Shown here piece after piece: positions 6,634-37,400 of a stretch of DNA of 54,638 nucleotides. The stretch's first letter is position 1; each line of letters opens with the position of its first letter. The DNA comes from Catajapyx aquilonaris (taxonomy: Eukaryota): contig KZ538295.1 of assembly GCA_000934665.2 (NCBI GenBank), positions 310,001 through 364,638 on the forward strand, written 5' to 3'. The notes beneath the pieces are model-generated. The model was not told the origin of the DNA and did not search any database. It saw only the letters and a program-made list of their open reading frames with translations. Position numbers and translations under genes: made by a program.

Positions 6634-6893
6634 ATGTCGTCGAAGCGGAAGTCGCCGCCGTCGAAGCTGGCGGAGGCGGAGAGTAACGGCGAAGGGTCCG
6701 GTCTGGCCGTAGCTGGCAACGACGCCCACGACGACGACGAAGCCTCCTTCGCCGACACCGACTTCCAAGCAGCATACGAAGAAGCTGGACTCAAGCTGTC
6801 CGACTTTTCAGACGGCGACGATCCAGAGGATTGTCTGTCCGCACTGCCGGTCAAGAAGCAAAAACTTCTTCGACCACCCAGGAGTCTCAGCAG
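6634..6893 (+). CDS. SoxD: SoxD coding exon 1 ([12 protein letters not shown]...)
   Basis: ATG at 6634 just after a pyrimidine tract and AG (6631-6632); donor CAG|GTACAT; phase 2. Confidence 0.85.
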
Positions 6894-18800: not shown

Positions 18801-21800
18801 AGACACGACACTAATGACTGTCGTAATGAAAAGCTATTAAAACGAAGCAAAAAAAAAAATTGCGACAGAAAAGACTAATGAATTTATAGATAACTGTTTT
18901 GAGATAATGAATGGCTCTTTGCCCATCACTAATAGGATCAGTTGTTAGACGTCGCATTGTATTTTGGGCGTCCCCGCTTTTGCTATTCACCGCCAACTCC
19001 TAATTAGCACCTCTTGCATAATTCAGGTGATTACACGAATTAATAACGGGGCATTTTTATATAGGGTCGTCGACCTTTGTACCTTTTTTCTCCTCCAGTT
19101 ATTTTTCTTTCATATTCGATACACGTGACATGCTGGGGGGGAGGTCAGCTCAACACAAAAAGGCCATCGCAAATCCTGGCTACGTTAGCGCGATAATATT
19201 TAATATTTGTTCAACTTGTGTAGGAAATCCGGTTTGGGTGAAGTCAGCTCGTGGAAATAATAAAGACGTGCAGAATACTCCAAACATGCGGATTTTTTCC
19301 TCTCTAAAAACGGAGTCGAGACACTTGCAGCCATTAATTCGAGGGCGCCAGGTTTTGACAGTGTTGTGAGATTCGGATGAGGTTCTTGTATGAGCCATGG
19401 CGCACTTACTGAAAAGCAGACTTCCGCCAAGCAGTGGGGGTGTGACAAATACAGGGTTTCTAAAAGCCTTGCATGGCATAAATATGAAAAGGTAGGGAGG
19501 GGGGAGGAGGGCTTAAAGTATTGGCAGTTACATAAACACCACTTTCTGCGGTTGAAAGGATACAATCAGCAAACTTAGAGTCTGGACCTGAAAGCATTCC
19601 TTTAGGTTTGGGTTATAAAACTGAACGTAACTTGAGCTCTCGGTTATTGGCTTTTGTCATTGATGGTGGCTTGGAAAAAGTCAACAAGTTGTCATCATGT
19701 AGACGATTCGTTGTTTTTTTCCCCCCCACTATAGTTTTTTCGAGGTGAGATTGGACGCATAATGGCGGCCGTGTCATCACTTCATTGTGCAACTTCCGTG
19801 CCAGATTCAGCTTCCAAGACAAATTTTCCTGCTTCACTGAAAATGTCTGCTTGAAGACCATTTTTTCCTCTCAGAGTTCATACAAGGGTTGGCTATCATT
19901 ATCAGAACAACAGCAAAAAAAAAAAGCGCGATAAGAGATAGATGGCGGCGCTTTTGCACGCCACCATTTTCGATCCGTTGCCAATCAGTTTCATGGCTTA
20001 GTCGAACCCAACCCCCCCCCCCCTCTCTCTGCCGCTAAAAGTAGTGCTATTATACGCGAACCAATGATCCAATTGATAGAAAGTGCTGGCAGATAGCGGG
20101 ATTGGCGGTATCATTGGAGCGTGGCCATTTGCTACTCCCGGCCCGTCGCGTTAATTAGACGATCATTGCATTTTGCTCGCTGTTGTACACTCCAATAATT
20201 AGGCTATTGATTAACCACTGTCCGATACGCTAATTAACGCTGCGATCTATGCATCCATTTGTATGTAATTAAAGCAAGAGAAATTCCATCCCACGTTTTA
20301 GCGCATTATAGCCCTCCCCCTGCTGTGTTAGATCTTGCCAATTGGGAGTTTGAGCCCTCCCAAACGATCATGTTATAACTGCAATCAAACCTGATTATTT
20401 TTGCAGCGGAAAAATGGATAATGGTGGAATTACGGGCGAAATTCACCTTTGACCCTGCGTTTTCCAGCCGTCGTGTATGTTTAGCACTTCTTTTTCGGAT
20501 GTGATTAATTACGTGGGCGGGCGATAAGGTATTATGGTGATTGGAAATAGCTCTTGAGTTTTGCAGCCCCCAGTTTTTATTTAACAGCATGTGCTTCGGG
20601 AGGCCAGGTTATTGACTTTACTATGTAGTCAGCTTAGATTATTGCCCATCAAGTCATTCCTGGTGTTAGTAGACGCCAAGTTCCTTGGCCCGTCCCCCTA
20701 TCATCCTCAGTTAGAGGCTGTAACTGCGAAGAAAGTGAGTCCTTCAACTCCCCCGGCCAGAAAACCTCCACAGAAGACACATTGTGGAGAGAGACAAAGG
20801 CCGTAAATCTCTCTCCAAGTAGACTTCGAGAATACAAGTGTGCCCCTTCTTGGACCCATATTTTTTTTTTTTAACCAACTCATATAAGAGGCTCGGGTTT
20901 CGAAAAACAATAAAAATCAGCCGGAGTTTCCTGCTTGTTAATTGAGGCGCCGTGATTTCTCTCTCTATTTTTTTATTATTTTAAAGTCGAGCTTGATGAA
21001 CAAAAGTGGCCATTGTGGTGTTCCAAGGCGATGTGACGTCATGCGACAATGAAGCGTGGGAACAGATTATTGGAAAATGTCGTGTAAACCAAGGGAGCGT
21101 TTCTAATGCTATTTTTATTTGCTGAATGTGTACAATGCAGCAGCATCAAGGTGAAGAAGGGGGCTGCAGCTACTGCACATCAAAGGGCACAATCAGCCCA
21201 CTTAATCCTCTTCATGGGTGTAAGCAGCAGTGTAGGTGATATCACCAATCCGGAAATGTCAAACCACTGCAGGCGACCCAAATAATCTGGTGTGGGGGTT
21301 GGAGGAAAAATATGTTACAAAAAGAAAACAAAGGAAACTGGAAGGGGGGGTTCTGGCCATTAGGAGGCACAAAGAGGCCTTTCTTTTCTTGGTGGGCTCC
21401 AGACAGGATTTTTACGCCTTGCCCATGTGGTGCCCAAGCTTGCTCCGGGGGCAGGAATGTCAGCCAAGCTGTTTTCCGAGATGACGTGATTTTTGGACCC
21501 AACAAAACTGCTGCTGGTTCTGCTCATGTCGCGCACAATGCAAATGTTGGCCAAACTAAAATTTAGTGGCCATCATGCAGCCAGTGAATATCCCTCAAAA
21601 GATACATTCATACAACATCATGATGAACGATACACACTCCTACAGATCAAATTTCATGGTCGCAATGCATCATCAGGGGGATTAGAATGAGATATATGCG
21701 TCTGGGTGAGATATTTGTTGAATAACCAGGCACAGATGACCATCAAAAAAAAAAAAAATCTGAACAAGGCTGGGCTCTATCTGGAAGCCATTACGTTGTT

Positions 21801-24227
21801 GCATGTAGGATAAATTGCGCCATATTGTACTATATAGTTCAGTATGAAAGACGGAAGAAGGGTAAAGAGTGAAAAAAAAGAGAAAAGAAGTGGAGGAGGT
21901 GTTGATGTTGACCACAGCTGGAGCTCGTTGGCTTCTTCTCGCCTTTATGCCGCTACTCATAATGGAAGTAATTTATAACCTCGTGGAGTTATACAAGCCA
22001 GCTTTGTTTGTCCGGGTGGTTTTCGGTGGGGGCCGCCCCTCTCTTCCGCTACCCCCTTGGGTGGGCCATACCATCCACACCCATGCGATGAGGATGATGA
22101 TGATGATGGCCAGGGATATTCTTGATTTTGGGGTCACTGCAATATTTCATTTTTCTGTTGCAGGAGGAGCCAAGGTCGCCTCTGACGGAGAGGCCACCAT
22201 CGTCGGGACCGTCGTCGCCGCCGGAGAAGACCCGTAGAGATTCGTCGTCGTCGACGTCGTCTGCTGCTGCGGCTGCGGCTGCGGTTGCTGCCATGCGGTC
22301 GTCGGAGCAGCTGCTGCATCACCAGCATCGTCTGCAGGAGTTGCAGGTTGGTATGCAGGTGAATATTACAGTAGCACGAATGTACACGTCTGTTCGTCTC
22401 TACATAGGAACAGATCTCATCGCAGTATGGAGGGAAAGGGTTGGGTCTCCCGGCTGCCGCGGCGCAACCTTTGGTCTTTCTGCCCTTCTTGGAGCAGATG
22501 CAGTTGCGGGGGCTGGCCCCGGGCGTGCCCTCGCCCATGCCGCCGATGCCGCCGGTCAGCTGCACCCCGACTCCAGTGTCTGCTGCAGCAGCTGTTGCGG
22601 CGGCCAAGAATGCCGGATTGCCGCCAACGGTATATGTTCGTTCTTAATACAAATCTGGTGGTGTTGAGAGCTCCGTCGAGTGTGTCACTGACCGTTGTGA
22701 TTGTCTCCGCAGTTGCTGCCGCAGTTGCCAGCGTGGGTGTCGGCCACGGCCCAGTTGGCCCACCTGTCCGGAGCTGCTGCGGCTGCTGCTGCGGTGGCGG
22801 CCAGCAGCGCTTGTTCCGCAGCTGGAGCCACGACGATCACCACCACGTCGCCACTCAACGGCTTCAGCAGCGGAAGATGTCCGCCGCCGTCGGTAACCCC
22901 TCCAGGCGAATCGGGTTCCACCGGCAGTAACAACAACAACAACGACGACGACGCTCCGTTGAATCTCTCCAAACCCAAAGGCGCGCCCGGGTACCCAATC
23001 GGAGGCCGTGGCAGTCCCCGTGAAGCACCGGACCATCCAATGCAGGCGCCAACTCCGCCCAAGATGCAGGTACCGCCCGGACTTGTTCTTCCTCAGAGCC
23101 TGCTGCCGTACGCGGCTGCGGCGGCTGCAGCAGCTGGCTTACCACCTCCGCCGCATCCACACCAGCATCCACATCACCATCATTTGGGACCTCCAATGCA
23201 GTCCGGGAAGGACTGCCTTAGCTCCTCGGGGCTGAGTTCACCGTTAGGGGCTGACAAGGCTGCTGCGGCTGCGGCGGCTGCAGCTGCCGCAGCAGCAGCA
23301 GCGTTTCACCTACCGATGTACCTTCCCCCTGGAAGCCACCATCCTCCGGGTATGGGCATGGGCATGTCTCTCGGCGGGGGTATGAGCATGCCGAATAGCA
23401 AGGCGGCTGAAGACGCCCTGAAGGCAGCGAAAGAGGACGACTACATCGCATGTCAGATGTGGGGCGACCATAGTCCGGGGTTGAAGCTGATGGAGGAACG
23501 CAGCGATAAGGCGAAGATGTACGGCGCCAAGATCATCCGTCAGCAGAAACGCGAGGCCGAGAACAAACCGCACATCAAGCGGCCAATGAACGCGTTCATG
23601 GTATGGGCCAAAGACGAGAGGCGTAAGATACTAAAGGCATGTCCGGATATGCATAACTCCAACATCTCCAAGATTTTGGGTGCCAGATGGAAATCCATGT
23701 CCAATGCGGAGAAGCAGCCGTATTACGAGGAGCAATCGCGTCTGTCCAAGCTGCATATGGAGAAGCATCCGGATTACCGCTACAGGCCGAGGCCCAAGAG
23801 GACCTGCATTGTTGATGGCAAGAAGATGAGGATCTCTGAGTACAAGGCACTGATGAGGCAGCGTAGGCAGGAAATGAGGCAGCTCTGGTGCAGAGACAAT
23901 GCTGTGGCTGACCTCTCATTCTTCCTGCCTCCTGGAGGTGGACCACAGGTTGGTCACCCGGTTTGACCATCACAATAATTCCTGAGACTAACACTTCGAT
24001 ATTTGCAGGGGTCAGACATGGGTGGACTTGCATCGTCATCGTCGTCTCCTCCGACCAATGGCACCGGCACCTCCTTGGCAGGTGGTGGGCCTCACCACCA
24101 CATGCATCCAGACAGCATTCCAATGTTGGACAGACTCAAGTACTCTGGAGATGGCAACCATCTCGGGGACCAGCATGATGACCTGTCCTCGCCTGAGATG
24201 GACGACGAACCAAATGGCGATGTGTAG
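6634..24227 (+). CDS. SoxD: SoxD-group HMG-box transcription factor (Sox5/Sox6/Sox13, Sox102F-type), whole gene model: join(6634-6893,7188-7424,7488-7770,22164-22346,22408-22629,22713-23948,24009-24227), 2640 nt, ~879 aa
   Basis: HMG box [41 protein letters not shown]...[15 protein letters not shown] is SoxD-diagnostic. N-terminal [17 protein letters not shown], the coiled coil [21 protein letters not shown] and PLNLSKPK also match SoxD. All six introns are GT-AG and phases are consistent (2,2,0,0,0,0). Confidence 0.93.
6905..7130. repeat. GAGTG/CACTC-rich interspersed element filling SoxD intron 1
   Basis: Many short inverted GAGT/ACTC motifs; shares TTCACTCTTCTTTC...CCACTC-ATTTGAGT-AAAGTAA with 51147-51197. 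Confidence 0.6.
7188..7424 (+). CDS. SoxD: SoxD coding exon 2 (contains [15 protein letters not shown])
   Basis: Acceptor TACAG|T, donor AA|GTAAGC; in frame with exons 1 and 3. Confidence 0.88.
7488..7770 (+). CDS. SoxD: SoxD coding exon 3 (leucine-zipper/coiled coil, Q-rich)
   Basis: Acceptor TTTTAG|T, donor [31 protein letters not shown] resembles the Sox5/6 dimerisation coil. Confidence 0.9.
8918..8932 (-). promoter_or_regulatory. CTCF-like binding motif
   Basis: Minus strand reads CACTAGATGGCGCTG, matching the core CTCF consensus. Confidence 0.45.
15515..15652. promoter_or_regulatory. Cluster of NRF1/Ewg-like (GCGCATGCGC) and YY1/Pho-like (GCCATTT) motifs, promoter-like
   Basis: Four GCGCATG(C/A)GC-type motifs at ~15550, 15574, 15603 and 15640, interleaved with CGGCCATTT/CGCCCATTT at ~15516, 15566 and 15618. 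Confidence 0.45.
22164..22346 (+). CDS. SoxD: SoxD coding exon 4 (EEPRSPL...HRLQELQ)
   Basis: Acceptor TTTTCTGTTGCAG|, donor CAG|GTTGGT (in-frame alternative CAG|GTGAAT after 22358). Confidence 0.82.
22408..22629 (+). CDS. SoxD: SoxD coding exon 5 (EQISSQYG...[11 protein letters not shown]...GLPPT)
   Basis: Acceptor CATAG|, donor ACG|GTATAT; phase 0/0. Confidence 0.82.
22713..23948 (+). CDS. SoxD: SoxD coding exon 6 (PLNLS motif, poly-Ala tracts, complete HMG box ~23565-23800)
   Basis: Long ORF 22701-23966 containing the SoxD HMG box; acceptor CCGCAG|, donor CAG|GTTGGT. Confidence 0.95.
24009..24227 (+). CDS. SoxD: SoxD terminal coding exon 7 (acidic C-terminus ...[13 protein letters not shown])
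   Basis: Acceptor TTTGCAG|, phase 0, TAG at 24225-24227, followed by AT-rich UTR-like sequence. Confidence 0.8.
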   Translation, partial: GSDMGGLASSSSSPPTNGTGTSLAGGGPHHHMHPDSIPMLDRLKYSGDGNHLGDQHDDLSSPEMDDEPNGDV

Positions 24228-24742
24228 TTTATAATTAATTAAAAAAATATAGTGTGTCTTGTACATAATTATGCTCGTTAGGAAAAAAAAAAGGGTGCGA
24301 GAGTAGGAGGGGACAGCCAAGAAATGTGTTCTTTGAGGGTGTGCGGAACACGACAATGCGGGAACTGAATAACCCAGTGCCATACCTTTGTACTGTATTG
24401 TTTAGGTTTAGGGAAGGAAAGAAAGTGACAAAAAAATTTAAAACAATCCAAATGGTAGGAGCTGCTTGATTGTTGATGCTTGTAGACTATGTGGAGAGAA
24501 TTTTTCTTTGGAAAAAAAGGGCCCAAGGTCACTGCATTTTTTGAGTTATACCTTTTTTTTCATGCTGTGATGATGCTTTGTTATACAGTGATTAACTCCC
24601 TGCTCCATTTTTTTTTAAAGGACAAAAAAAATGACTAAATATTAAGAGTGGTTATTGGGGTGGGGCGGGTGGGATTGATGGGTACAAGGGAGTGTCTTGA
24701 ATGTTTCTTTTCACTTCTCACATTCTGGTGTGGTTTCAAGTC

Positions 24743-24745
24743 GAG

Positions 24746-24778
<33 letters not shown>
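24743..24778. repeat. (GA)n microsatellite in the presumptive SoxD 3' UTR
   Basis: Imperfect GA run visible directly. Confidence 0.85.
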
Positions 24779-27013
24779 TGGACGCAGTTATGTGAGGACT
24801 TGGAATGTTGGTGTTGGGGACCAAAGGTCACTCTCCGAAGTGTTAGAGACTGTGTATTTAAAGAAAAAGAAAGAAGAAGAGTAGGAAGAAGAAAGAAAGA
24901 AAGAAATGTGTGATTTTCACACGTAGATGTCCACATTTTTTTGGTTGGTTTTTTCTTTTGTTATGTTGATGTGGTATATACTCCCCCATTTTTAATATAA
25001 AAAAACGAACCCTGTTGATGGATCCACTTCAACTTTCCCATTGTTGTTGCAGCCAAAAAAAATTTTTTTTTTGTCATAATTAGAAGAATGACCAGAGTGG
25101 TGCTGTTGTTGCAAAAGAGGATGTGTTTTACTGCCTCATGGACATGTTCATGTTTTTTGTGGTAGACTTGCTTTATAACTGCCTATTACCCCCTTCCCAT
25201 CCACCCAACCCCCTTCCCACTTCCCCCCAAAAAAGAACCTTATTCATGACCTCCCTCCCCCTAAAATATAATCTGTTGAATGTGTCCCCCTTCACTGTAT
25301 GGTACTTAAAAGATTGAAAAAAAAGGAAGTCAGACTGTACGTCACATCGGTCTTGTACAGCTAACCTTTTAGAAGTGAGAGAGTAAAATTGTTGGAATCC
25401 TTATTATTGTTAAGTTTTATTTTGGGCTGCGATTCAGATAACACTTCCTGATGGTGATAGGATGAAAGGTTTTTAACACTTATCTCTTGCAGAAGAAGCA
25501 GCTTTGATGATTATGCTGCATACCCTCACAAGTCATGGCAACCAGATAATCCCCATGTGTAATGCAGCACCTGTTATAACAACTCTTGGCCTCCATCTCA
25601 TGGTATGTCATTATATCTTTGATTCAATGCAACGACCACATTGCATTCATCTATGAGGCGATGAAAGAAGATGGCCTCGACTCTAACAGGAGCCCACATG
25701 GTGTCACTGGTTGCTATGGCAGTCTAAATGCAATGCAATGATGCTAAATAAATATAAAATGACTGTGCACAGCAAGTTATGTCTCATTCATTACCATTAA
25801 TAATTGTCTCGGCCAAGGCTTCAGAAGTTCAAAGTCTGAGGCTTCTTACACATGGAATGACATATCCTGGCAGATATGCATCCCTCCGCGCAATTTTCGG
25901 GCCGTTTACATCGGCAAGTTTTATTCGTAATCTACGCGAGTCACTTCCTGTGACGTAAGCAGGAGTACGTGTCGAAAAAAAAAAATCTATGTGAGGGGAA
26001 AAGAACTGCAACACATCCATTTTACTCCAACACGATGTGACAGCTTCTGATTCAGATTTTAGGCTAGAAAATATTTGACCCCACCCGCCCGGCTTACAGC
26101 TGACTGCAATAAATGAAATACGCTAATTGTTTTTAAAAGCACGCTTTCTGATCCACACATCACAACATAAAAATGCTGGTGCAGTACACAAGCGAGATGC
26201 ACCATTCATTTTGTCAAAGGTTATCTCTCGACATCCTCTCTGATGTCAGCTCTTCTGTCGACCTGGATTTATTTAGAGGAGACATGATGCCTGTAAACGC
26301 AGCCAGTTCCATTCAGGGGTTGGAGTAAACTCTCCCAAGTGTATCACAACACATTTAATTAATTAATTAACAAGAAGTCCAATAGGACGATTGGACCAGC
26401 AGGATATTAGACATGGTTAAAATACGTCCAGAAGGCACGTGTGTTGTGTGTAGACAATAGATTTTGGAGATTTTGAACTGCCCCTGTCCAATCTTTCTTT
26501 CCCTGCCTGGAGTTGCATCGAGAAGGTTCTCGCTGATGACGTATCATACATCTGCTCCATATGGTAAGCATACATATTGCTGGGGGATAGTACTGAATGG
26601 ATTGTGCGAGTACGTATACCATGCCATTGAATCAGTCAAGCAGGTTCACTAGTGAAATACTGCGGCATCAATTATATTGAGTGTTATTGTTTCTAGGTGA
26701 GACAAAAGAAGGCCAGAATCTTTGCGATCGAGGACTGCATCGACACTGATCGACGCTCCATCGACGCTGACTGTCAAAATGGTCCTCGGACAGTGTTGTC
26801 GACATGAAGCATTTGACGACCACCATTAGGCTACAACTCTGGTGAGTACCTGAGCTGCAAGTCCGACAAACACGACCCTCTGACCTCTTCCATGATCCAT
26901 CCCCTCCAATTCCCGTGGTTTTTCGGTGGAGATTGTAGCTGCAGTGAATATTGAAGCTCCCGATTTTTTAAACTAATGCTACCTTGGTAGTTTGAAATTT
27001 ACGAATTTGCGAA

Positions 27014-28044
27014 TCTTCTATCATTAAAATTTTTGCGGACTATGTATAAGCGATAAGCCATCTGATTGGTCAGCCTCTTATTGTTGTTACCGCACGCTTA
27101 CTATTGGCCCCCCTTCATTGTTACTGCGGCATTACCATGACACCTGTAATAATTGGCCACTGTTCCAAGCACTTTGGTTCCAAGCATGCACAACATTTGG
27201 GGGAAGTAGCCCCTCAGTTGTCAGCTGACTTCCGATGAGTTAACAACATGAACAGTCTCTGCCACGGTCTCTGCCGTCACCTCGACCCTTCCCTGTTCCA
27301 TCCACACCCGTCCGTCCCCCCCGATTCGGTCACTGCATATCTTTAAAAAATTGTTGTATGCGCGGGTGAAGAAATGTATGCCCTTTCGAATGTTGTTACC
27401 TTAGTATGTTAATATTCGTGAGAATTAATTAGCACTTACTTCTATGACTCAGAGTGTCAATAGTCACGTTAATCAGGCATTTGGATAATCACGATGAACA
27501 TGTCCAATGCTAATCATACACATACACATGTGGAAAAAAAATGTTGGCGGCCCTTTGTTTGGAACGCTGCAGTGCGTTGATGACCTTTTGTTTGGAACAG
27601 TGCAGTGTTGGCAGCCCTTTGTTTGGAACGGTGCAGTGTTGGTAACCCTTTGTTTGGAACGCTGCTGTGTGTTGGTGACCCTTTGTTTGGAACGTTGCTG
27701 TGTGTTGGCAACCCTTTGTTTGGAACAGTGCAATGTTGGCACCATTTGTTTGGAACGCTGCTGTATGTTGGTGACCCTTTGTTTGGAACATTGTTATAAT
27801 GGGAAATTCAATTGCAAAATCAATTGTGTTTGAATTTTGAACGGCTTCTAATATGGAATCATGGACGGGGTTGGGGGTTGTGCATATGATTGGGGGGTGG
27901 GCATCATCACTGGCTGTAAGTCTGGAGGGATTAACAATGTGGCCTCCACCATCCCAGGCGGCAGGCCTAGAAAAAGCGAATGAAGAGAGTGGCCTTCTTG
28001 GCCTGCACCATAGAAAAATGTGAGCGAAGCGAGGGTTTTTCTAG
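27014..28044 (+). mobile_element. Putative non-autonomous Helitron-like element
   Basis: 5' A|TCTTCTATCATTAAAA; 3' GCGAAGC mini-hairpin followed by CTAG|T; internal minisatellite. The 5' boundary is tentative. Confidence 0.5.
27543..27793. repeat. Minisatellite, 8 copies of a 31-33-bp unit (GTTGGTGACCCTTTGTTTGGAACGCTGCTGTGT)
   Basis: Direct tandem repeat. Confidence 0.92.
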
Positions 28045-28295
28045 TCAATCTTTAAAATGGCTCCAGGTAATTGGAATGTGTGGGAATGGCAGCATTTGCA
28101 ATAGGCTAATGGTATAGAATATATGCCCCATTTTTCGAGTCATAAACTCATAATAATTAACTAAAACTGGCAACTGATGTGTTCATCCGAGCTGGCTCAT
28201 TGAACCCACTGTCATGAGGCTCCACTAGAATTTATTGAACTCGTTACGTTTCAGTTTGCGAATTATTTGACTCAAATATTGGCCATTGTACTCGT

Positions 28296-28803
28296 AAAAA
28301 TGGATGTCTTAACAGGATTTATTTTGCTGTGTGACAGAATTACTTTTATTGGGCATTCTTAATATTTCATGAAATGAAACTGTTTTTAGATGTGTCATCT
28401 GAGTAGTGAACCTGGGCTCGGAAGCTGAGAATTTGCAATATTTATTTTTCATTTGAAATGGCCACAGGAGGCATAGGAACCTTCCAGAATGTATCCCGAT
28501 TTTTTAGACAATAGTATAGACTATAGACGATGGCCATTTTTTGAGTTAGGCCTACCATACATATTCATGGCCATCGTCTACCATTGTCTGAAATATTGAG
28601 AATAATTATGGAAGGTTCCTAGTGCATTCTGTGGCCATTTCAAATGCGAAAATGGCAAATTCACAACAACTTTCGAGGAGCCCAGGTTTTCACTACTCAA
28701 AGGACATGTATTAAAGCAGTTTCATTTCATGAAATATTAAGAACAACATCCAATAAAAATTATCCTGTTACGCAGCAAAATCGATCCTGGGACACATCCT
28801 TTC
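28296..28803. mobile_element. Foldback/MITE-like inverted repeat with ~240-bp diverged arms
   Basis: TTCTTAATATTTCATGAAATGAAACTG, CATTTGAAATGGCCACAG, TAGGAACCTTCCA and TAGACGATGGCCAT are all mirrored as reverse complements around ~28550. Confidence 0.8.
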
Positions 28804-31509
28804 TGCACCATTCTTCAACTCCATCAATGAATAACGACATGCTAGAATTTTGAGTGAAATGTCAACTTGCACCACCCACCCGTCATTTATTGGCAAACTG
28901 GAGTACAGTGATGTGTAAAATGTTTAATGCTCCTGATTTGATTGACATGTAAAATTTTAAAAATTAAACCAGTGCAGTGGTAGGTCTGTCAAATGCATTT
29001 ACCCCAATATTAAGGGTAAAATATATTCTGGTTTCATGCAGCTCTTAATAAGGTGCTGTGGCATTATGGTCATTCCTTTTTCTCAAGCAAACAATCACAG
29101 CTCTTCAGGATGGCGACTATTTTGCAATGATACCAAATTCAAAATTGGTTCATTTGAAGACCAACTTGATAAGCAATATTACATGAAGGTGCAGCCTACC
29201 TTTGCTGGAGTGCTGTAAATATCAAATTTGCATTTTTACTGAATTTGGAGGTGTGGAATATCCCCTTCAGTTGATGCAAAATTGTACTTTTAAATACTAA
29301 AAGAGGACATAAACCCATTCCACAATTTATTAGTGACTTGTTGCCTGACATTTTGATCTCATGTAATCCGCCCTTTGCAGAAGCAGCCTCGAACATCTGC
29401 GTTGCTCAGGAGATGTGACTGCTGCCATGGACAACTCATTTGGCAGAGACACTCCAGCAACAAACATGGTCATCTCATTTCATCGCCTGCCCACAGCGCA
29501 ATTATGGTTCTTCGAGTGACTTGAGATGCCAACACTGCCACACTTGATGAGTCCTTTTCATTTATTGGTGCCTCAGGTGTTAATTCGTTATACTTTGGGA
29601 AGTCACTGTAATCTGTACATGGGCTACCATCCATGGAAAATGGCCTGGCAGTGCTAATTTGTAGTTGCATTATAGAAACATTAAATGTGGCAGATGGAAC
29701 CAATGAGTTGAGTAGCATTTTGCATATGGTAAGTGGCAGACTTCTCACAAAATGTGGTGTTGCGTGTTGTGTATTCAATTCAAAGAATACTTAGGCACTT
29801 GATTGAACCTATGAGGATATGGTTACTTTGCAAGTTAACGAGCAATGGCAATGGCATGGTGACATTGATAGCTGTTTTCCTCAAAGACTAGATTTCGCCA
29901 TGAAAATGCACGCATTAGTCTTTCAGTTCAAGTCTTCCCTTCAATGGCATTTTTCTCGTAACTAATCTGCTTATTATTTAGCAGTGTCTTTTTAGTGGCT
30001 ATTTAAATATCTTCAGGGCACCACTGCACTTGCCAAACGCTGGTGAAGTTCACCTAGTACGAAAATCAGCTGCATGTCCATGTCGCAAATATGAATCCCC
30101 ATTGTCACAAAGCAGTGCCATGAACTGTGTTCACCCTGCCTCACGACAACACCTGGGCATATGTGGCTTAAGAAGTTTCATGTTGCTATCGCATGACTTT
30201 TGGCACTTCTGTGTATTGCATAACAATGGATTGCACTGATTTTATTTCGCATTCTTGTTGATTTGATTTCTTTAGGCTGGAGGAAGAGCAGCAGTGATTT
30301 CCAGGACAGTTGTTGCCAGAGGAGGATGCCCATTGAATTAATCGGATGGGACTAGGCTTACAATCAACAGATAGAAAGCTGACCTTGCTCTGCACTCATC
30401 CCAATGTTTGCCCTGCCCATTGGCCCTGGGTTCAAACTTTGTGTGTGGTTAAAATTACGCCCCGAAGTTGACGTGTTTATCTGACTAAAATGAGAGTCCT
30501 TTTCGTTGGAACATTTGTGAGATTCTGAATGTGTCTGTAGAGTATTAGAAGTTACAAAGTGATTTGCAAATATGTTTAAAGCCAATATTCTAAAATTCAT
30601 CTTCTTATCTTTACAGGAACAACCGATGAGCTGATGTCCAAATGGAGTCGACGAGTGCCGCGTGTCATTGTTTTGGTCAATCACCTGTCACTTCGAGGCT
30701 TGCTAATAAACAACATTTCCCCCCAATACCATGTGACTTGAAAAATTCATTATTGTTCAGATTCCGAGGAGTAATTGCCGTTGGGGAAGGTAGGAAGTTG
30801 TGGATTGAACCTTCTTGGAGGAAATGATAATAATGACACCATATTTAATGGATCACAGATTGGAAGTTGAACCTAAATTTAGGTTACCCAATTTTCCGCC
30901 TTCAGTGCGAAACGGTATGTGCAGGACATGCAGTGGAAGGGCTTCCCTGGGAGGATAGGGGAAGGGGAGGGCAATGTCGCTTACATTGCCCATGGGGTGG
31001 GGCCTGGGTGGGGCACCCCATGGCCATCGTCCCGAAGCCTCTCTCCCTGGCCATCAGCGAATAGACGGAGGGAGGAAAGACAACGGAGCACTGTTATATA
31101 CTGTTATATACATTACACAAAAAGGCAATACAGATGTACGTAATAACAAGGGTAATAATAATAATTGTTGTTCTGACTGCTGCTCTTTTCCAGGAGGTTC
31201 AAAATAACAGTTATGGTTTAGGCTGCTTGGTCCTTTCCAGCCTGTGCAATAAAGATGTCCACAATAATAGTTGCTCCTCTGATTGCTGCTACACCTATTC
31301 CAGATGTACCAATCAGTTATGTCTGAGGCTGCCCAACAATCTAAAAAATGAAAAGTATAAGCTTATAAATAGTAATTTCACTCCAGGAGAAAATTTCATT
31401 ACCTATTTCACAATGAATTTTACAGGAAATACATAATGCTACATGTAACTAATTTTCTCAAACACTTGATATTAAGAACTTGGTCATATTTGATCAATCA
31501 TCACAATGC

Positions 31510-33130
31510 TGTCAAAACATCAAGTGATTGTCTACGAAATTTTTAATGGCAGCAGCAGGCTACAAATTCAACCCAGAACCTTTGCATTGCCAATTCCTGA
31601 TCATTATCATCATCACTTGACCCAATCAAGATCTCAGTAATTTATTGCCTTAAAACAATTTCAACCTAATCAGTTGTGCAGATGAGTCAAAAAAAAACCT
31701 TTCCCTTGACTTAATTGATAGATGCAAGATAAAGGAAGTGAATGGGGAATAAAAACCAATGGATCCAGGTATGACTTATATTGAATTAATATGCGAATTA
31801 TGAAAAATTTCCTAGAATTGCTCAAGAACGCAATAAACATGTTGGATGTGTGTCAGCCAAAAATCTTCATTTAAAGAGAGTTACTTTATTATTTCCATTA
31901 GGATTAAATTATTCACATCTGTAAACAATAATACAAGGTCATTTCTGCAGTAGTATAGAGGAAATGTGATAGTTTGCAAAAAATCTTACGAGCTGTCACA
32001 TTTTGATCCCGTTACATATGCACTCAATGAACTGACAGTTGCTCTTCTCTTAGCATAATAATTTTTCATGAAATCGCCCCAGTATAACGTATTCAAACTC
32101 GACGTTGCGAGCTACAACTTTCACCACTGTGTCTTTCGCACATGAATGACCCCACAAGCAAGTTTCAACCAAATCGGAGGTATCCGACCTTCCCTTCCCT
32201 TGTTAGTGGCACTTGCTTTGCCATTACTACTTAGTCTTTTACACACCTGCATGTAACAGTGGTTATCAAAAAAATTAGCTACTAATCATATTAGGTTCCA
32301 TTGCCACACAATCAAGTGTTTTGTGTTAGAGATTTTAAATGACATTAGTACACATACCCTTCGTAATGTAGCAGTGCGATATCCTTTAATAATAATCTAG
32401 TGAATAAGCTAGGTCTTACGCATACCTGTCTTGTTTACTTTTAATTTCTATCCTCGCCATTGAGGTCTTACTACCCTTTTTTTACAGAATGGAAGGTTTT
32501 TGTGATAATTTATGTAATGGCATTCTGGCATCAAAATATGACAGGTTGTAAAATTGTTTACAAACTGTCATCACATTTCTATACTGCAATGCCACTACAT
32601 AAGTGTTCATGTAACTGAGCTTGAATGATCCCAGTTAATGTATGCCAAGTCATATACTACTGCAGATATTTGTATTATTATTCACAGATAACTGCACATT
32701 AAGTTGCCACAACTTAATGTGCAGTGCTGAAGGCATTAAAGTAATTATTTAAATGAAGTTATTTGGCTGACACACATTCAATATGTCTTTTCAGTTCTTG
32801 AGCACTTTAAGCCCATTGCACCTAATTGGCAAATTAATTCAATACAAGTCGTAACTTGATCCATTGGTTTTTATTCTCCATCACTGAACTTCCTACTTGT
32901 CTTGCGTCCATTCTTTTCAGTTCGCCAGAGTCAATTAATTCGCCAATTCAGTCAAAGGAAAGGTTCTTTGACACATCTGCTGAACTGATTAGGTTGAAAT
33001 TGTGTGTTTGGCAATCCCTGAGACCTTGATTGGGTCAAGTAGTAATGATACCATTGCAGGATTTGAAGCACAGAAGTTCCTGACGTGGCCTATTCACTGC
33101 CCACAATATTTTATTGCTGACTAGATGTTG
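31510..33130. repeat. Old long inverted repeat: arms ~31510-32020 and ~32520-33130
   Basis: Collinear reverse-complement blocks: ACTTGACCCAATCAAG, ACAATTTCAACCTAATCAGTT, GAATAAAAACCAATGGATC, ATGTGTGTCAGCCAAA, TCTGCAGTAGTATA. Confidence 0.8.
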
Positions 33131-33162
33131 ATCTTGCAAAGGTTCATCCAGTCTCGTATATG

Positions 33163-33225
33163 CAGTGGCGTCGCTAGTGTTGTTGTCACCCGGTGCGGCA
33201 ACTCATGGTGTCACCCGCCCCCCCT
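33163..33225 (+). mobile_element. hAT-like MITE terminus fragment
   Basis: CAGTGGCGTCGCTAG start with repeated TGTCACCC subterminal motif; partner end not clearly found. Confidence 0.35.
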
Positions 33226-33359
33226 CCCAAGGGCCAGGACCCTCTCCCGTGCCCGACCGTACAGAATACTTGGTTATTTTTTAGTACTAATGAAGCTCTC
33301 ATGTATATCACTGATTGCCATGTGAATAGTTGTCATGAAAAGAACAAAATTTAAAGGTG

Positions 33360-33500
33360 TACGAGGTGTGATCGAAAAGTTCCCGGACTGTGTTCATGAA
33401 AACATTAACATTTGCCACCTTTAAAGTAGTCACCTTGGACACGTATGCAACAATTCCAGCGAATTTCCCATTTTTGGAAGCACCAAAAAAATTGCGCAAC
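33360..33500 (+). mobile_element. Truncated mariner-like 5' end
   Basis: TACGAGGTGTGATCGAAAAGTTCCCGGACT resembles mariner TIRs; no transposase follows. Confidence 0.5.
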
Positions 33501-33642
33501 AGTAATAATAATTAATAATAATTCATACCCCGTTATCAGCCGGCGGCTCTTTAGGGGGGAAATTTTTGTTTTGACTGGAACTTCATTTTATTTGCTTTTT
33601 GGGATAGGATAGGGACGGAAGGAAGCGGCTGTGGCCTGTTTT

Positions 33643-33823
33643 TTTATACCGCGGGAATTTTCATACCACGTGAATTTTCATACCACGGATATTTTCATAC
33701 CACGTGAATTTTTATACCACGGATGTTTTTACACCACGGATATGTTTATACCATGTGAATTTTGATACCACGGATATTTTCATACCACGTGAATTTTTAT
33801 ACCAGGGAAATTTTTATGCCACA
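33643..33823. repeat. Minisatellite, ~10 copies of a 17-bp unit (ATACCACGTGAATTTTC)
   Basis: Direct tandem repeat with alternating GTGAA/GGATA variants. Confidence 0.9.
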
Positions 33824-33834
33824 ATTTTTTTAAA

Positions 33835-33960
33835 CCCTGTAATGCCCCTTGGGTCATATCTGGCACACCATTTAGTGCAATTTTTATATTTCCTGTAACT
33901 GAGGTGCCAAATGTCACTAAATGGTGTGCCAGATATGACCCAGAGTGGAGCATTACAGGG
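33835..33960. mobile_element. Small hairpin MITE with CCC...GGG ends (piggyBac-like termini)
   Basis: ~45-bp TIRs CCCTGTAATGC...TGGGTCATATCTGGCACACCATTTAGTG and its reverse complement. Confidence 0.7.
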
Positions 33961-34189
33961 ATATATCACATGAAAAGAAATCATAACAGGGTTTGTTTTT
34001 TTTGTTTTTGGCAGAGGAATATTTTTTAAGAATATACAGAAACACAAAGTATCACCATTCTTTTACTTATTAGCACACTAATAAGGCAAAAAAATGTAAC
34101 CTAAATCAAATATTTTATGGTGATTGTTGAATTTTGTGGCGCCCTTTCTTTACAATAAGTACATGCTGGAGAGAGTGTCAGTATCGAAG

Positions 34190-34255
34190 AAGCGCAGTGG
34201 TCGAGTGGCTAAGGGGCTTTCTTCGTAACCTGAAGGTTGAAGGATCGAATCCTGA
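34190..34255 (+). other. tRNA-like Pol III promoter cassette 1 (A and B box), left arm; mirrored at 36229-36292 on the - strand
   Basis: A box TGGTCGAGTGG (TGGTCTAGTGG in the mirror copy) and B box GGATCGAATCC at tRNA spacing; no acceptor stem. Confidence 0.6.
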
Positions 34256-34391
34256 AAGAAAGAAGTCGTTTCTTTTTATCGCTGTGGACCTTTCTCGCTG
34301 TTACTTGGTCTCTCGTTTCACATTTATTTCTCTATGAAGTGCATCTGGTAAATAGGCTAGACCCTTCCAACACTCACACTCTCGTTGCACC

Positions 34392-34460
34392 AGAGCGTGG
34401 CTGTGTGGTAACGCATCAGACTCTCAATCGGGAGATGTGGGTTCAAATCCCTTGTCTCCT
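34392..34460 (+). other. tRNA-like Pol III promoter cassette 2, left arm; mirrored at 36023-36092 on the - strand
   Basis: A box TGGCTGTGTGG, anticodon-like loop GACTCTCAATC, B box GGTTCAAATCC; poor acceptor stem. Confidence 0.62.
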
Positions 34461-37400
34461 TGGTTGAGAGTCAGAAAAAAAATTTGCAGCCGACATCTCT
34501 GGCCAAGATGGCGACTGTTCCTTCGCAGTTTCCCCAACACTTCTTCAGAGGTGTCGGAGGAGCAGCGAGGGGGGGGAGGGGTTGAGAGGAGGGGGAAGAG
34601 GAGGAAGGGGGAGAAAATTTTTTTGGAAATTTTTAAGACACCTGCTTAATGGGAGGGGGCGGTCACTTTTTTCGAAGAAAAAAAGTTAAAAAATATAAAG
34701 TCATCAAAATGATCAAGTGGCTCCGCTTGTGTCGTCCATCCCGGCAGCCCCCACCCTACGCACCCCATAGTCCCTACATTTGTGTTATACCAGGGAGTTA
34801 CATTCTCAAACCTATCACCCCTCCAAATATTTAAAACTACAATTTAAACTATAGGACCTATAAAATCACAAGCACATCCAAATTAATCAGCACACTTTTT
34901 AGAGCATTTCCAATGTTTTGTTGCAGCCTGACCTTTGACCTGAAAGGCCCTAATATTAGGTTTTTGGTCTGTGGCCAGGCCCTACCTCGGTCTCCATCTG
35001 TCGGAGCTTTCGTAATGAGACTGTACAGAGCACAGTACTTAGATATACAGTATATCTCTCGATGTGAGGTAGTATGCCCCTAGCCAAACGTAGTGGCAGG
35101 TATCATTATCTATGAATGTGACGTAGGCGAGTGGTCACCTCCTTGGGGTCATCAGGACGGACATGCGGCATCACTGTTTCGTGGCATTGTGTATGGATTA
35201 TTAAAGTAATAAATTCCAACTACAACCCGCTACAAACCCGCTTCTGCTGTGCGTGGAGATGCGCATATCGTCGACGCGGCTTTAGATAGGCAAATTTTGG
35301 TGTAGGCTTGGTGACCTTCATGTCTCCTTGACCTTACATATTCCCCCCTTTCCACCCCCGCCCCGCTACCCACAAGGACAGGCGGACTGCTACATTTGGC
35401 TAGCAGGCTAGGAGTATACTACCTCACATCGAGAGATATACTGTATATCTAAGTACTGTGCTCTGTACAGTCTCATTTCGAAAGCTCCGACAGATGGAGA
35501 CCGAGGTAGGGCCTGGCCACAGACCAAAAACCTAATATTAGGGCCTTTCATGTCAAAGGTCAGGCTGCACCAAACCATTGGAAATGCCCTAAAAATTGTG
35601 CCGATTCATTTGCATGTGCTTGTGATTTTATAGGTCCTATAGTTTAAATTGTAGTTTTAAATATTTGGGGGGGGTGATAGGTTTGAGAATGGAACTCCCT
35701 GGTATAACACAAATGTAGTCACTATGGGGTGAGTAGGGTGGGGGCTGCCGGGATGGACAACACAAGCGAAGCCACTTGAAAATTTTGATGACTTTATATT
35801 TTTGACATTTTTCTTCGAAAAAAGTGACCGCCCCCTCCCATTAAGCAGGTGTCTTAAAAATTTCCAAAAAATTTTTCTCCCCCCCCCCTCCTCTTCCCCC
35901 TCCCCCCCCCTCTTCGCTGTCTCCTCCGACACCTCTGAAGAAGTGTTGGGGAAACTGCGAAGGAACAGTCGCCATCTTGGCCAGAGATGTCGGCTGCAAA
36001 TTTTTTTTCTGACTCTCAACCAAGGAGACAAGGGATTTGAACCCACATCTCCCGATTGAGAGTCTGATGCGTTACCACACAGCCACGCTCTGGTGCAACG
36101 AGAGTGCGAGTGTTGGAAGGGTCTAGCCTATTTACCAGATGCGCTTCAAAGAGAAATAAATGTGAAATGAGAGACCAAGTAACAGCGAGAAAGGTCCACA
36201 GCGATAAAAAGAAACGACTTCTTTCTTTCAGGATTCGATCCTTCAACCTTCAGGTTACGAAGAAAGCCCCTTAGCCACTAGACCACTGCGCTACTTCGAT
36301 ACTGACACTCTCTCCAGCATGTACTTATTGTAAAGAAAGGGCGCCACAAAATTCAACAATCACCATAAAATATTTGATTTAGGTTACATTTTTTTGCCTT
36401 ATTAGTGTGCTAATAAGTAAAAGAATGTGATAATTTGTGTTTCAGTTATATCAGGTAAAAAAGGCATATTCATTATACAGTATGTTATCAGAAACCATTA
36501 TTTTCGCGGCTTTTCCAGTTTTCCCCGCCACTTCTTCCACCCTTTTCTCCCAGTCTCCCACTCTGCGTTACTGAGCTAGTCAGGGTGTGACCCGAGGTCA
36601 TGGGTCACACAATGTATTGTATACTGTATAAAGCATAATAAATTATAATCATATGCATTATGTGTACATTATTTAGTTAGTACAGTGCAGTACACAATTT
36701 GCTGTGTATACCATGCATACACATTGTTTTTAGAGCGCTTAAAACTTGTCATAGATAAAATCCTGCTCTATTGAAAAAATACTTGTGGATCGCTGCGAGA
36801 GCCAATAATAAATTTATATTAAGAAATATGGAGAAAAATATAACTATAACGCTGCTCAAGTATATGTGCAGGAAGCGCTCACCTACAATCCTGTATAGTG
36901 TTGACGAGTACAAAATGAAGGATTAAAAATTGCCAAAAAAAAGTATCTAAAAATATGAACGTGGATCAGTTAAAAGAAAACATAATAACTTAATAATGTC
37001 GACTGCTCGAAACATTTATTATGCACATTTAATGGGAGGTTCCTGGTTACAATTAAGCATTGCGAATGGTTCAACGAGATTGATAGTACCTGATGCAGTT
37101 GTGAACTGGGTTGTCTGAAAATCAGGTATGACGCACATTCTCGAGATTCAATTTTTTTGCCATTATTAGCTCCATATTAGCCACTAGACCAATGAAACAC
37201 ATGACAAATATCTACTGCATATGCGGGTAATTAGCTATAGTACTGTAATACAGGCCAATGTTTAACTCGAACGAATACTTGAGTAACGGATTTTAATGTT
37301 TAGATGCAATGACATGCTATAAAATTGAAGCCTTTTTGATTCTAAATTTTCTTAATAATATACTGTACTTGCCTCCCTGAAGACCTGGCACACCGAAATT

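Follow-up and report, generated by a model that had tools for sequence, protein, structure and literature searches.

Between the convergent SoxD and Syt-like genes of Catajapyx aquilonaris lies a 2.4-kb palindrome with tRNA-like Pol III cassettes in its arms, which raises the question of whether the locus is a regulatory or RNA-producing site or a copy of a repeat. We addressed this in a window of 54,638 nucleotides (contig KZ538295.1, positions 310,001 to 364,638; all coordinates below are those of the window), in which the stop codon of the Syt-like gene is 3.6 kb away from the palindrome and that of the SoxD gene about 10 kb. The named matches of the SoxD gene point to an insect-like arthropod, probably a hexapod. 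We conclude that the palindrome is an ordinary dispersed repeat rather than a regulatory locus of a special kind. It is probably a copy of a foldback-like mobile-element family that is non-coding and present many times, and in our best reading its arms are mosaics assembled from interspersed modules of high copy number, SINE-type heads included.

Architecture of the palindrome

BLASTN aligned the left arm (34032-35085) with the right arm (36451-35406) at 94.99% complementarity over 1,058 columns, in agreement with the kilobase palindrome described in the first-pass annotation: inverted arms at 95% surround a loop of 320 nt, or of 296 nt if an extra 14-nt inverted pair (35080-35093/35390-35403) is counted. 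The left arm occupies 34024..35093 on the plus strand (well supported from 34032 inwards, less so over its outermost ~8 nt and its innermost 8 nt), its reverse complement, the right arm, occupies 35390..36461 on the minus strand, and the non-coding, unstranded loop or middle domain occupies 35094..35389. Together they form a 2,438-nt unit, ~88% of which is made up by the arms (~1,054-1,070 nt each).

The arms differ by 5%, contain indels relative to each other and align in five collinear inverted blocks of 507 nt (99%), 89 nt (92%), 157 nt (89%), 268 nt (96%) and 47 nt (G-rich, 79%). Identity is uneven, 99% over the outer 507 nt and 89 to 96% further in, which is not the pattern expected from simple decay after insertion. 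Divergence is strongest in a G-rich low-complexity tract (34556..34614, plus strand; right counterpart 35875-35927), which was all that TRF reported in each arm, tandem subrepeats being absent. The inner part of the arm, module C (34785..35085, plus strand), also occurs in other upstream contexts. Within the window, neither BLASTN (E 1e-3) nor, on the masked sequence, a more sensitive search at word size 7 revealed a further copy of the arm, the top match of the latter being 22 nt long (E 0.23).

Pol III cassettes in the arms

We scanned the window for an A box and a B box by their consensus motifs, with at most one mismatch each and a gap of 20-50. The two cassettes per arm announced in the first-pass annotation were recovered where expected, in the left arm on the plus strand (A 34190/34198 to B 34242, and A 34398 to B 34440) and in the right arm on the minus strand (A 36293/36285 to B 36241, and A 36085 to B 36043). 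The observed gaps of 31-41 nt correspond to a tRNA-like spacing, every A/B-box pair of the window sits within the palindrome, and none of 30 first-order Markov windows contained one. That all four cassettes face inward results from the symmetry of the arms and is not an independent feature; likewise, the matching positions of the two modules in the left and right arm are due solely to one arm being a copy of the other.

Module 1 of the left arm (34190..34277, plus strand), apparently a tRNA-like relic, comprises an A box at 34190-34200 or 34198-34208, a B box at 34242-34252 and a T5 run at 34273-34277, and the A box of its right-arm counterpart (36206..36293, minus strand), TAGCGCAGTGG, fits the consensus perfectly. 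Module 2 of the left arm (34394..34481, plus strand), a degraded tRNA-like unit, has its A box at 34398-34408 and its B box at 34440-34450, with a run of A8 behind them at 34474-34481, and the module in the right arm (36002..36089, minus strand) combines the boxes with a match to Rfam tRNA below the gathering score. The T-run that had been noted at ~34472-34483 is in fact this A8 run with TTT directly behind it on the plus strand; the T-runs 3' of the cassettes are the T5 at 34273-34277 and a T7 at 34618-34624.

Module 2 matched the Rfam tRNA family with 24.4 bits over 56 nt, under the gathering score of 29, carried CTC at the anticodon position and gave a cloverleaf in ARAGORN at the 80% threshold only, while module 1 gave neither an Rfam tRNA match at E<=1 nor a cloverleaf even at the 70% threshold. 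With 0 tRNA genes found by ARAGORN in the window and an Rfam score under the gathering threshold, we rejected the cassettes as functional tRNA genes. Module 2 was predicted to fold into a long hairpin (-44.1 kcal/mol, z -5.3), and the fold of module 1 had a z-score of -1.8. Judged from their sequence, the A/B boxes of these presumably tRNA-derived, SINE-head-like modules are well kept in both arms.

Coding capacity

The palindrome had been described as devoid of a transposase-like ORF, and indeed none of the five arm or edge ORFs matched a Pfam family. Among the 18 neighbouring ORFs, Pfam recognised nothing but the pair of C2 domains in the Syt-like gene, so that a transposase domain was found in neither set. 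A 156-aa arm ORF had no scoring match among 27 candidates from public protein sets, the loop contains no ORF of at least 80 aa, and exact arm-sequence patterns gave 0 matches in metagenome contigs.

Copy state of arms and loop

We placed contigs of four public sequencing runs on a 2.4-kb stretch consisting of the left flank, the left arm and the loop. X1, X2 and X3 come from one sample, possibly that of the assembly itself, and X5 from a different sample and study; 1,649 (X1), 1,917 (X2) and 1,889 (X3) contigs were placed, all short (~80-250 nt) and none spanning the stretch. Summed depth per 81-nt bin reached 1,415-34,502 in the arm, against 23-33 for single-copy contigs, an excess ranging from tens of times to about a thousand times over single copy, where summed contig depth is not copy number and all copy figures indicate an order of magnitude only. 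The bins of the cassette modules had a depth of 4,190-21,329 against the same 23-33, which suggests more than 100 copy-equivalents. In the loop centre (35187-35267), depth was 366-637, about 16-20 times single copy, and both arm/loop junctions together with the loop centre lay at ~16-23 times.

The junctions themselves were recovered. A contig joining the left arm to the loop (35056-35139, 0 mismatches) had a depth of 416 in X1 and 746 in X2, and the opposite-strand joint between loop and right arm (35085|35405) was present in X2 (depth 550, side 18) and again in X5, in a 193-nt contig of depth 3.7, of which 39 nt belong to the inverted side; X5 contained a further opposite-strand joint at 34609|34929. 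The presence of both arm/loop junctions in run contigs, and of the inverted one in an independent sample, indicates that the inverted structure is real somewhere in the genome. The palindrome thus exists as a unit in multiple copies, and its arm modules, which exceed its loop ~10-40-fold in depth, are much commoner than that loop, implying that most arm-like copies are solo, differently paired or combined with other middle domains. The first-pass annotation had named an already described, high-copy arm occurring mainly solo, with no small RNAs or TFIIIC occupancy at the site, as evidence against its own reading. This applies in part: the arm modules have a high copy number, and the majority of them lack a connection to this loop, as depth drops from thousands in the arms to 366-637 in the loop centre.

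Variant copies were also seen. In X1, X2 and X3 alike, the loose ends "before" 34785 carried one common foreign sequence; a copy without the 400-nt middle module (~34389-34788) is represented by a joint that connects 34373 with 34789 over 13 intervening letters, effectively 34388 with 34789; another variant skips 35054-35313 (260 nt); and diverged versions of the loop appeared as loose ends at 35189. The A-run behind module 2 differed in length between copies. The earlier suggestion of a foldback-type or composite element that lacks a transposase and has tRNA/SINE-like heads in each of its arms is supported by the multi-copy arm/loop junctions, the inverted one of which recurs in the second sample.

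Termini and flanks

Immediately outside the arms, AGGAATATT (34015..34023, unstranded) and AGGCATATT (36462..36470, unstranded) match at 8/9 positions in the one copy examined. By our own rough estimate, the chance of such a duplication near symmetric termini is 0.05-0.1, and we regard this 9-bp target-site duplication, imperfect, possibly due to chance and seen in a single copy, as a candidate. The left flank (33915-34029) is itself ~5-fold repeated in the run contigs, so that the amplified unit may exceed the palindrome.

Comparison with known elements

In passages of PMC4079207, foldback elements are described as having long terminal inverted repeats (TIRs) and a variable non-coding middle domain, as being mostly non-autonomous and as existing in many rearranged forms; those named there include FB, Tetris and Galileo of Drosophila and elements of sea urchin and Chironomus, and target duplications of 8-10 bp are given for foldback elements, Tetris included. 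The palindrome resembles the elements so described in its long inverted arms, its short, non-coding and variable middle domain, its multi-copy state, its deleted or rearranged forms and the lack of a transposase in the copy, and the candidate 9-bp duplication falls inside the 8-10-bp range given for Tetris in those passages (PMC4079207). In contrast to classical FB, Galileo and Tetris, its arms lack internal tandem subrepeats as judged by TRF, and unlike foldbacks they contain tRNA-derived Pol III cassettes; a search of the full-text literature returned no paper describing such cassettes in foldback elements. The likeness to the named families is one of structure and description. Foldback elements would further be expected to be flanked by target duplications of a fixed length of 7-10 bp and to have an autonomous relative or a transposase of the Mutator/MULE or P superfamily.

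The modules share with tRNA-derived SINEs the A/B boxes, the degraded cloverleaf of module 2, the variable A-run and an abundance of hundreds of copy-equivalents by depth. They differ from SINEs in that they occupy identical internal positions in both arms without target duplications of their own, in that module 1 lacks a cloverleaf, and in that neither module reaches tRNA-gene thresholds. The Culex "Twin" SINE is reportedly a complex or dimeric tRNA-derived SINE. In the relevant sections of PMC3531059, SINEBase defines SINEs as being under 700 bp, gives a consensus range of 75-662 nt and assigns a tRNA origin where a stretch of 60 nt or more is at least 60% identical to a tRNA species.

Origin of the palindrome

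Several of these observations could also be read differently. The arm might be a solo, ~1-kb composite retroposon-like repeat that became palindromic by local inverted duplication or by head-to-head nested insertion and then reached ~20 copies within a larger segment or larger repeat, not by its own transposition. The ~10-40-fold excess of arm over loop depth, the ~5-fold repetition of the left flank, the occurrence of modules in other contexts, the A8 run of varying length behind module 2, the intact A/B boxes and the lack of a clean target-site duplication at the palindrome ends would all fit such a history. Against it, the arm/loop junctions and the loop have a similar depth, 16-23 times single copy, the diverged loop versions fit a family evolving as a unit, the arm exceeds the 75-662-nt range and the under-700-bp definition quoted from SINEBase (PMC3531059), and the arm limits show neither target-site duplications nor tails of the SINE type; we therefore consider this origin rather unlikely. 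A false joining of high-copy repeats into an inverted structure by the assembly at this locus appears very unlikely. Arms made of high-copy repeats are indeed hard to assemble, the run contigs are too short (~80-250 nt) for any to span the structure, the placed stretch of left flank, left arm and loop does not include the right flank junction, and X1-X3 may be the assembly's own sample. However, the arms differ by 5% plus indels, unlike fold-back read artefacts, both arm/loop junctions occur in run contigs, one at 0 mismatches, and the inverted junction occurs in the independent sample X5.

A foldback-like family remains our preferred reading, even though the imperfect candidate duplication, the repeated left flank, the missing tandem subrepeats, the excess of arm modules over the loop and the uneven identity of the arms count against it. 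In this case, a transposase encoded at another locus would act, or would have acted, in trans to move the unit as DNA, possibly with a 9-bp target duplication as reported for Mutator/foldback elements, and the A/B-box modules would be passengers or former building blocks of the arms. A dual mode, in which arm-loop-arm moves as a DNA foldback and the Pol III cassettes of the arms are live SINE source genes that retropose alone, would explain both the ~10-40-fold excess of arm modules and the near-consensus A/B boxes in both arms; we regard it as a long shot, and if true, it would make the palindrome a class I/class II hybrid that spreads Pol III/TFIIIC sites as inverted pairs. That long TIRs should contain two different Pol III cassettes, both near-consensus, is in any case a small curiosity.

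Hairpin RNA and boundary function

Long palindromes are known to cause instability and, where they are transcribed, to give rise to siRNAs. The predicted hairpin of this palindrome has 1,018 arm-to-arm pairs and a longest perfect helix of 186 bp, and according to this model a single-stranded read-through transcript would fold into a ~1,018-bp hairpin that could feed Dicer. For such a hairpin to form, Pol II would have to read through from the convergent neighbours; the first-pass annotation had likewise called for Pol II read-through, in agreement with the ends of the Pol III products at T5 (34273) and T7 (34618), which make these products short and keep them from meeting across the loop; the A/B-box modules would yield at most short Pol III RNAs of ~85 nt and ~230 nt. 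Hairpin-forming transcripts of the MariN1 element of Tupaia are processed to siRNAs, as stated in part of PMC4408798, and Drosophila hpRNAs are presented in part of PMC10317233 as hairpin-RNA loci giving endo-siRNAs. Read-through of the palindrome would be expected to form a long, nearly perfect hairpin, but unlike those of hpRNA loci its arms are TE-derived, not copies of a target gene, and it is one of about 20 similar units.

Transfer RNA genes and extra-TFIIIC sites can act as chromatin boundaries. The palindrome resembles them in having four B-box cassettes within 2.1 kb and differs from them in that the cassettes are not functional tRNA genes and are part of a dispersed repeat. A selected locus between the SoxD and Syt-like genes, serving as a source of hairpin RNA and endo-siRNAs or as a TFIIIC boundary, is what the four good A/B-box cassettes, the predicted ~1,018-bp hairpin, the site between convergent genes and, in the part of PMC4408798 concerned with MariN1, the siRNAs from hairpin TE transcripts of Tupaia might lead one to expect. 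We hold it to be highly improbable, since the palindrome unit is present ~20 times and its modules hundreds of times, with this copy not singled out, since Pfam and a protein search revealed no homology of the arms to any protein gene that they could target, and since Pol III transcription would terminate at T5 or T7 without giving double-stranded RNA. For annotation, the 2.4-kb palindrome between two developmental/neuronal genes is thus a dispersed repeat copy to be masked, not a regulatory element or RNA gene. The host is a poorly sampled arthropod, in which the family may merit attention as a possible source of instability or, if transcribed, of siRNAs.

Rfam matches and small motifs

Between 33500 and 37000, Rfam at E<=1 returned six rows, which are three inverted pairs and all under gathering scores: two module-2 tRNA matches, two mir-4899 and two mir-2011. 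Membership in mir-2011 (28.2 bits against a gathering score of 80) and mir-4899 (23.5 bits against 85) was rejected. No ribozyme or other Rfam family was matched in this interval at E<=1, and this lack of a ribozyme match argues against a Penelope-type element with hammerheads. The mir-2011 pair corresponds to both strands of one hairpin MITE at 33845-33950.

Two short motifs had been reported as present in the arms. AAGATGGCG does occur once per arm, but the DR1-like TGACCTTTGACC is exact in the left arm alone (34929), and both are treated here as chance occurrences. The small terminal hairpin, TTATTAG-CACA-CTAATAA, is present at ~34068-34085, as a short AT-rich stem without demonstrable significance.

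Structure of the inverted repeat

A kilobase palindrome had been reported at this locus by the first-pass annotation, and our analysis bore this out. Within 34056-36427, a repeat search returned five collinear inverted blocks of 507 nt (99% identity), 89 nt (92%), 157 nt (89%), 268 nt (96%) and, G-rich, 47 nt (79%), which BLASTN joined into two arms, 34032-35085 and 36451-35406, with 94.99% identity over 1,058 columns. The inverted repeat is thus real and well beyond chance. The arms enclose a loop of 320 nt, or of 296 nt when an extra 14-nt inverted pair at the loop edges is counted, and neither BLASTN nor a sensitive search found further copies of any part of the palindrome in the 54.6-kb window. 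The palindrome has no coding capacity: none of the five open reading frames (ORFs) that lie in the arms or at their edges matched Pfam, and the longest ORF in the arms (156 aa) gave no scoring match among 27 candidates from a large protein collection.

Repetitiveness in public reads

Five public sequencing runs were listed, four of one sample and one of a second sample and study, with no RNA run among them. We placed the contigs of runs X1, X2, X3 and X5, the last representing the second sample, on positions 33000-35405, which comprise the left flank, the left arm and the loop. This 2.4-kb stretch attracted 1,649 (X1), 1,917 (X2) and 1,889 (X3) contigs, whose identities fell into the 99+, 95-99 and 90-95% classes, indicating many sequence variants. 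With long contigs at depth 23-33 as the single-copy reference, thirteen bins of the arm showed summed depths of 1,415-34,502; since summed contig depth is not copy number, these values are read as orders of magnitude only, and the arms amount to tens to about a thousand copy-equivalents, varying by segment.

The palindromic core was also found to be multicopy. The centre of the loop (35187-35267) had a depth of 366-637, and a contig crossing the junction of left arm and loop (35056-35139) without mismatch had a depth of 416 in X1 and 746 in X2. An opposite-strand joint, 35085|35405, which is the exact loop/right-arm junction of the window, reached a depth of 550 in X2 with 18 nt on its short side, and it recurred in the independent sample X5, where a 193-nt contig extends 39 nt into the inverted side. 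Taken together, the depths of the junctions and the loop centre indicate that the core is present about 16-23 times and not once.

Rearranged forms were likewise seen among the run contigs. One variant joins approximately 34388 to 34789 and is devoid of the 400-nt middle module, another omits 35054-35313, loose ends at 35189 represent loops that have diverged in sequence, and X5 has a further joint of opposite strands at 34609|34929. In X1, X2 and X3 alike, a foreign upstream context begins at 34785, and two contigs of about 9.3 kb at single-copy depth (31-33) terminate in a copy of 34152-34240.

Global alignment of the arms revealed substitutions and several indels, most of which fall within the G-rich tract or the inner half. 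Identity was uneven: the outer 507 nt agree at 99%, the inner half at 89-96% (34032-34562 versus 34563-35085). At the outer differences 34203, 34315 and 34334, the majority of the family in the run contigs has the right-arm letter, while at the inner differences the right-arm letter never reaches the 10% listing level. Each arm hence has private changes relative to a large family; those of the outer part belong mostly to the left arm and those of the inner part mostly to the right arm. The split and the uneven identity suggest that the arms underwent gene conversion or have a recombinant origin, rather than having decayed uniformly.

tRNA-like Pol III cassettes

We scanned both strands for A and B boxes with at most one mismatch each and 20-50 nt apart, using consensus motifs. 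As the first-pass annotation had proposed, each arm carries two cassettes. Module 1 runs from the A box at 34190/34198 to the B box at 34242 in the left arm (+) and from 36293/36285 to 36241 in the right arm (-), where its A box fits the consensus perfectly; module 2 runs from 34398 to 34440 (+) and from 36085 to 36043 (-). All four point inward because the arms are symmetric. Such pairs were confined to the palindrome within the window and occurred in 0 of 30 first-order Markov windows.

A functional tRNA gene was ruled out for both modules: ARAGORN called no tRNA gene in the window, module 2 scored 24.4 bits with the Rfam tRNA model, under the gathering score of 29, and module 1 had no match at E<=1. 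Lowering the ARAGORN threshold to 80% produced a degraded cloverleaf for module 2, with CTC at the anticodon position, and none for module 1 down to 70%. When its 3' extension is included, module 2 is predicted to favour a long hairpin of -44.1 kcal/mol (z -5.3), and the fold of module 1 is unremarkable (z -1.8). At 34384-34484 and 35999-36099 this extended module 2 is predicted to form a near-perfect hairpin of about 60 nt, with a 12-nt inverted pair at 34416-34427/34464-34475; its shape resembles a miRNA precursor, yet mir-4899 scored just 23.5 bits, where the Rfam gathering score is 85.

A T-run had been placed at 34472-34483; on the + strand, this is in fact an A8 run. Downstream of the modules, T-runs of at least 4 nt first occur at 34273-34277 (T5) and 34618-34624 (T7). 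Of two motifs attributed to the arms, AAGATGGCG occurs once per arm, and TGACCTTTGACC is exact in the left arm only. Module 2 has an A-run tail of variable length. Set against the SINEBase definitions (PMC3531059), the arm modules are SINE-like in their internal Pol III promoter and apparently in abundance, which by summed depth would exceed 100 copy-equivalents, and module 2 also in its variable A-run tail.

Classification and rival explanations

Foldback elements are characterized in PMC4079207 by long terminal inverted repeats (TIRs), a variable noncoding middle domain, mostly nonautonomous copies and many rearranged forms, a description that the structure of the palindrome matches. The same source assigns them mostly to the Mutator superfamily, with Galileo in the P superfamily, and gives target duplications of 8-10 bp. 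A systematic scan of both ends yielded a single candidate duplication, AGGAATATT (34015-34023) versus AGGCATATT (36462-36470), identical at 8/9 positions and bounding an element at 34024-36461 with imperfect outermost ends; by a rough estimate, chance would give such a pair near symmetric termini with a probability of 0.05-0.1, making it a lead and not proof. The arms differ from those of classical foldbacks in that no tandem subrepeats were found in them, and none of the papers listed by full-text literature searches describes foldbacks whose TIRs contain Pol III cassettes. The foldback-type or composite structure suggested earlier is nevertheless supported by the long arms, the multicopy junctions and loop, and the rearranged variants. 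Most likely, the palindrome belongs to an already known class, that of foldback-like nonautonomous elements with SINE-derived content.

The fact that the arms exceed the loop 10- to 40-fold, with a repeated left flank, would also fit a solo, composite, retroposon-like arm that was inverted locally and later copied inside a larger unit. We consider this unlikely, since both junctions and the loop have similar multicopy depth and diverged loop versions exist. Misassembly at the locus is very unlikely: although no contig spans the whole stretch and the placement covered the left flank, left arm and loop, both junction sequences were found in reads, the inverted one also in the second sample. A dual-mode family, with arms acting as live SINE source genes and the paired form transposing as DNA, seems highly improbable to us, and a selected hairpin-RNA or TFIIIC-boundary function is extremely doubtful, as the window copy is not distinguished among about 20.

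As a foldback-like nonautonomous element, the palindrome would move as DNA by means of a transposase encoded elsewhere, and SINE-type modules may have built or invaded the arms before arm duplication or homogenization. If Pol III fired, both arms would give identical short sense RNAs, one of about 85 nt terminated at T5 and one of about 230 nt terminated at T7, which would be unable to pair with one another. Read-through by Pol II would yield a transcript predicted to fold arm to arm into a hairpin of about 1,018 bp, whose longest perfect helix measures 186 bp. Such a transcript could be diced, by analogy with a hairpin-forming MITE in Tupaia whose transcript is described as diced in PMC4408798.

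Genomic context and neighbouring repeats

A SoxD-type HMG exon corresponds to the ORF at 22701-23966 (+); its closest named relatives are from insects (cockroaches and a termite, 49-55%; beetles, 46-48%), the top match being unnamed (79%). These relatives place the window in an arthropod, probably a hexapod. C2-domain exons of a synaptotagmin-like gene lie on the - strand, with the stop of the last exon at about 40042; two C2 domains were the only Pfam matches among 18 neighbouring ORFs. The SoxD-type gene (22701-24227, +) and the synaptotagmin-like double-C2 gene (40042-43093, -) converge on a repeat-rich intergenic region of about 16 kb. The palindrome therefore sits between two convergent genes, about 3.6 kb past the synaptotagmin-like stop and 10 kb past the SoxD exons. 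The window has two single N positions, at 7934 and 51946.

A left-flank contig (33915-34029) had a depth of 156-187, so the neighbourhood is repetitive too. A hairpin element of about 126-131 bp at 33832-33962, with TIRs CCCTGTAATGC.../...GCATTACAGGG and inner 34-nt arms that are 94% complementary, behaves like an inserted MITE: in several contigs, 33831 is linked to 33963 by no more than TAA or TAC. Its bin depth was 24,000-37,000, versus 23-33 for single copy. Its weak Rfam match to mir-2011 (28 bits versus a gathering score of 80) probably reflects just hairpin likeness. Adjoining this element on the left is a tandem array (33641-33822) made of 10.7 copies of a 17-nt unit, with a higher-order unit of 51 nt (TTTTTATACCACGG...). 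The commonest repeat of 33000-35405 was 33486-33647, with summed depths of 78,000-195,000 in X1-X3 and 3,884 in X5; a short core found in many contexts is marked by loose ends at 33594-33606 and at 33637.
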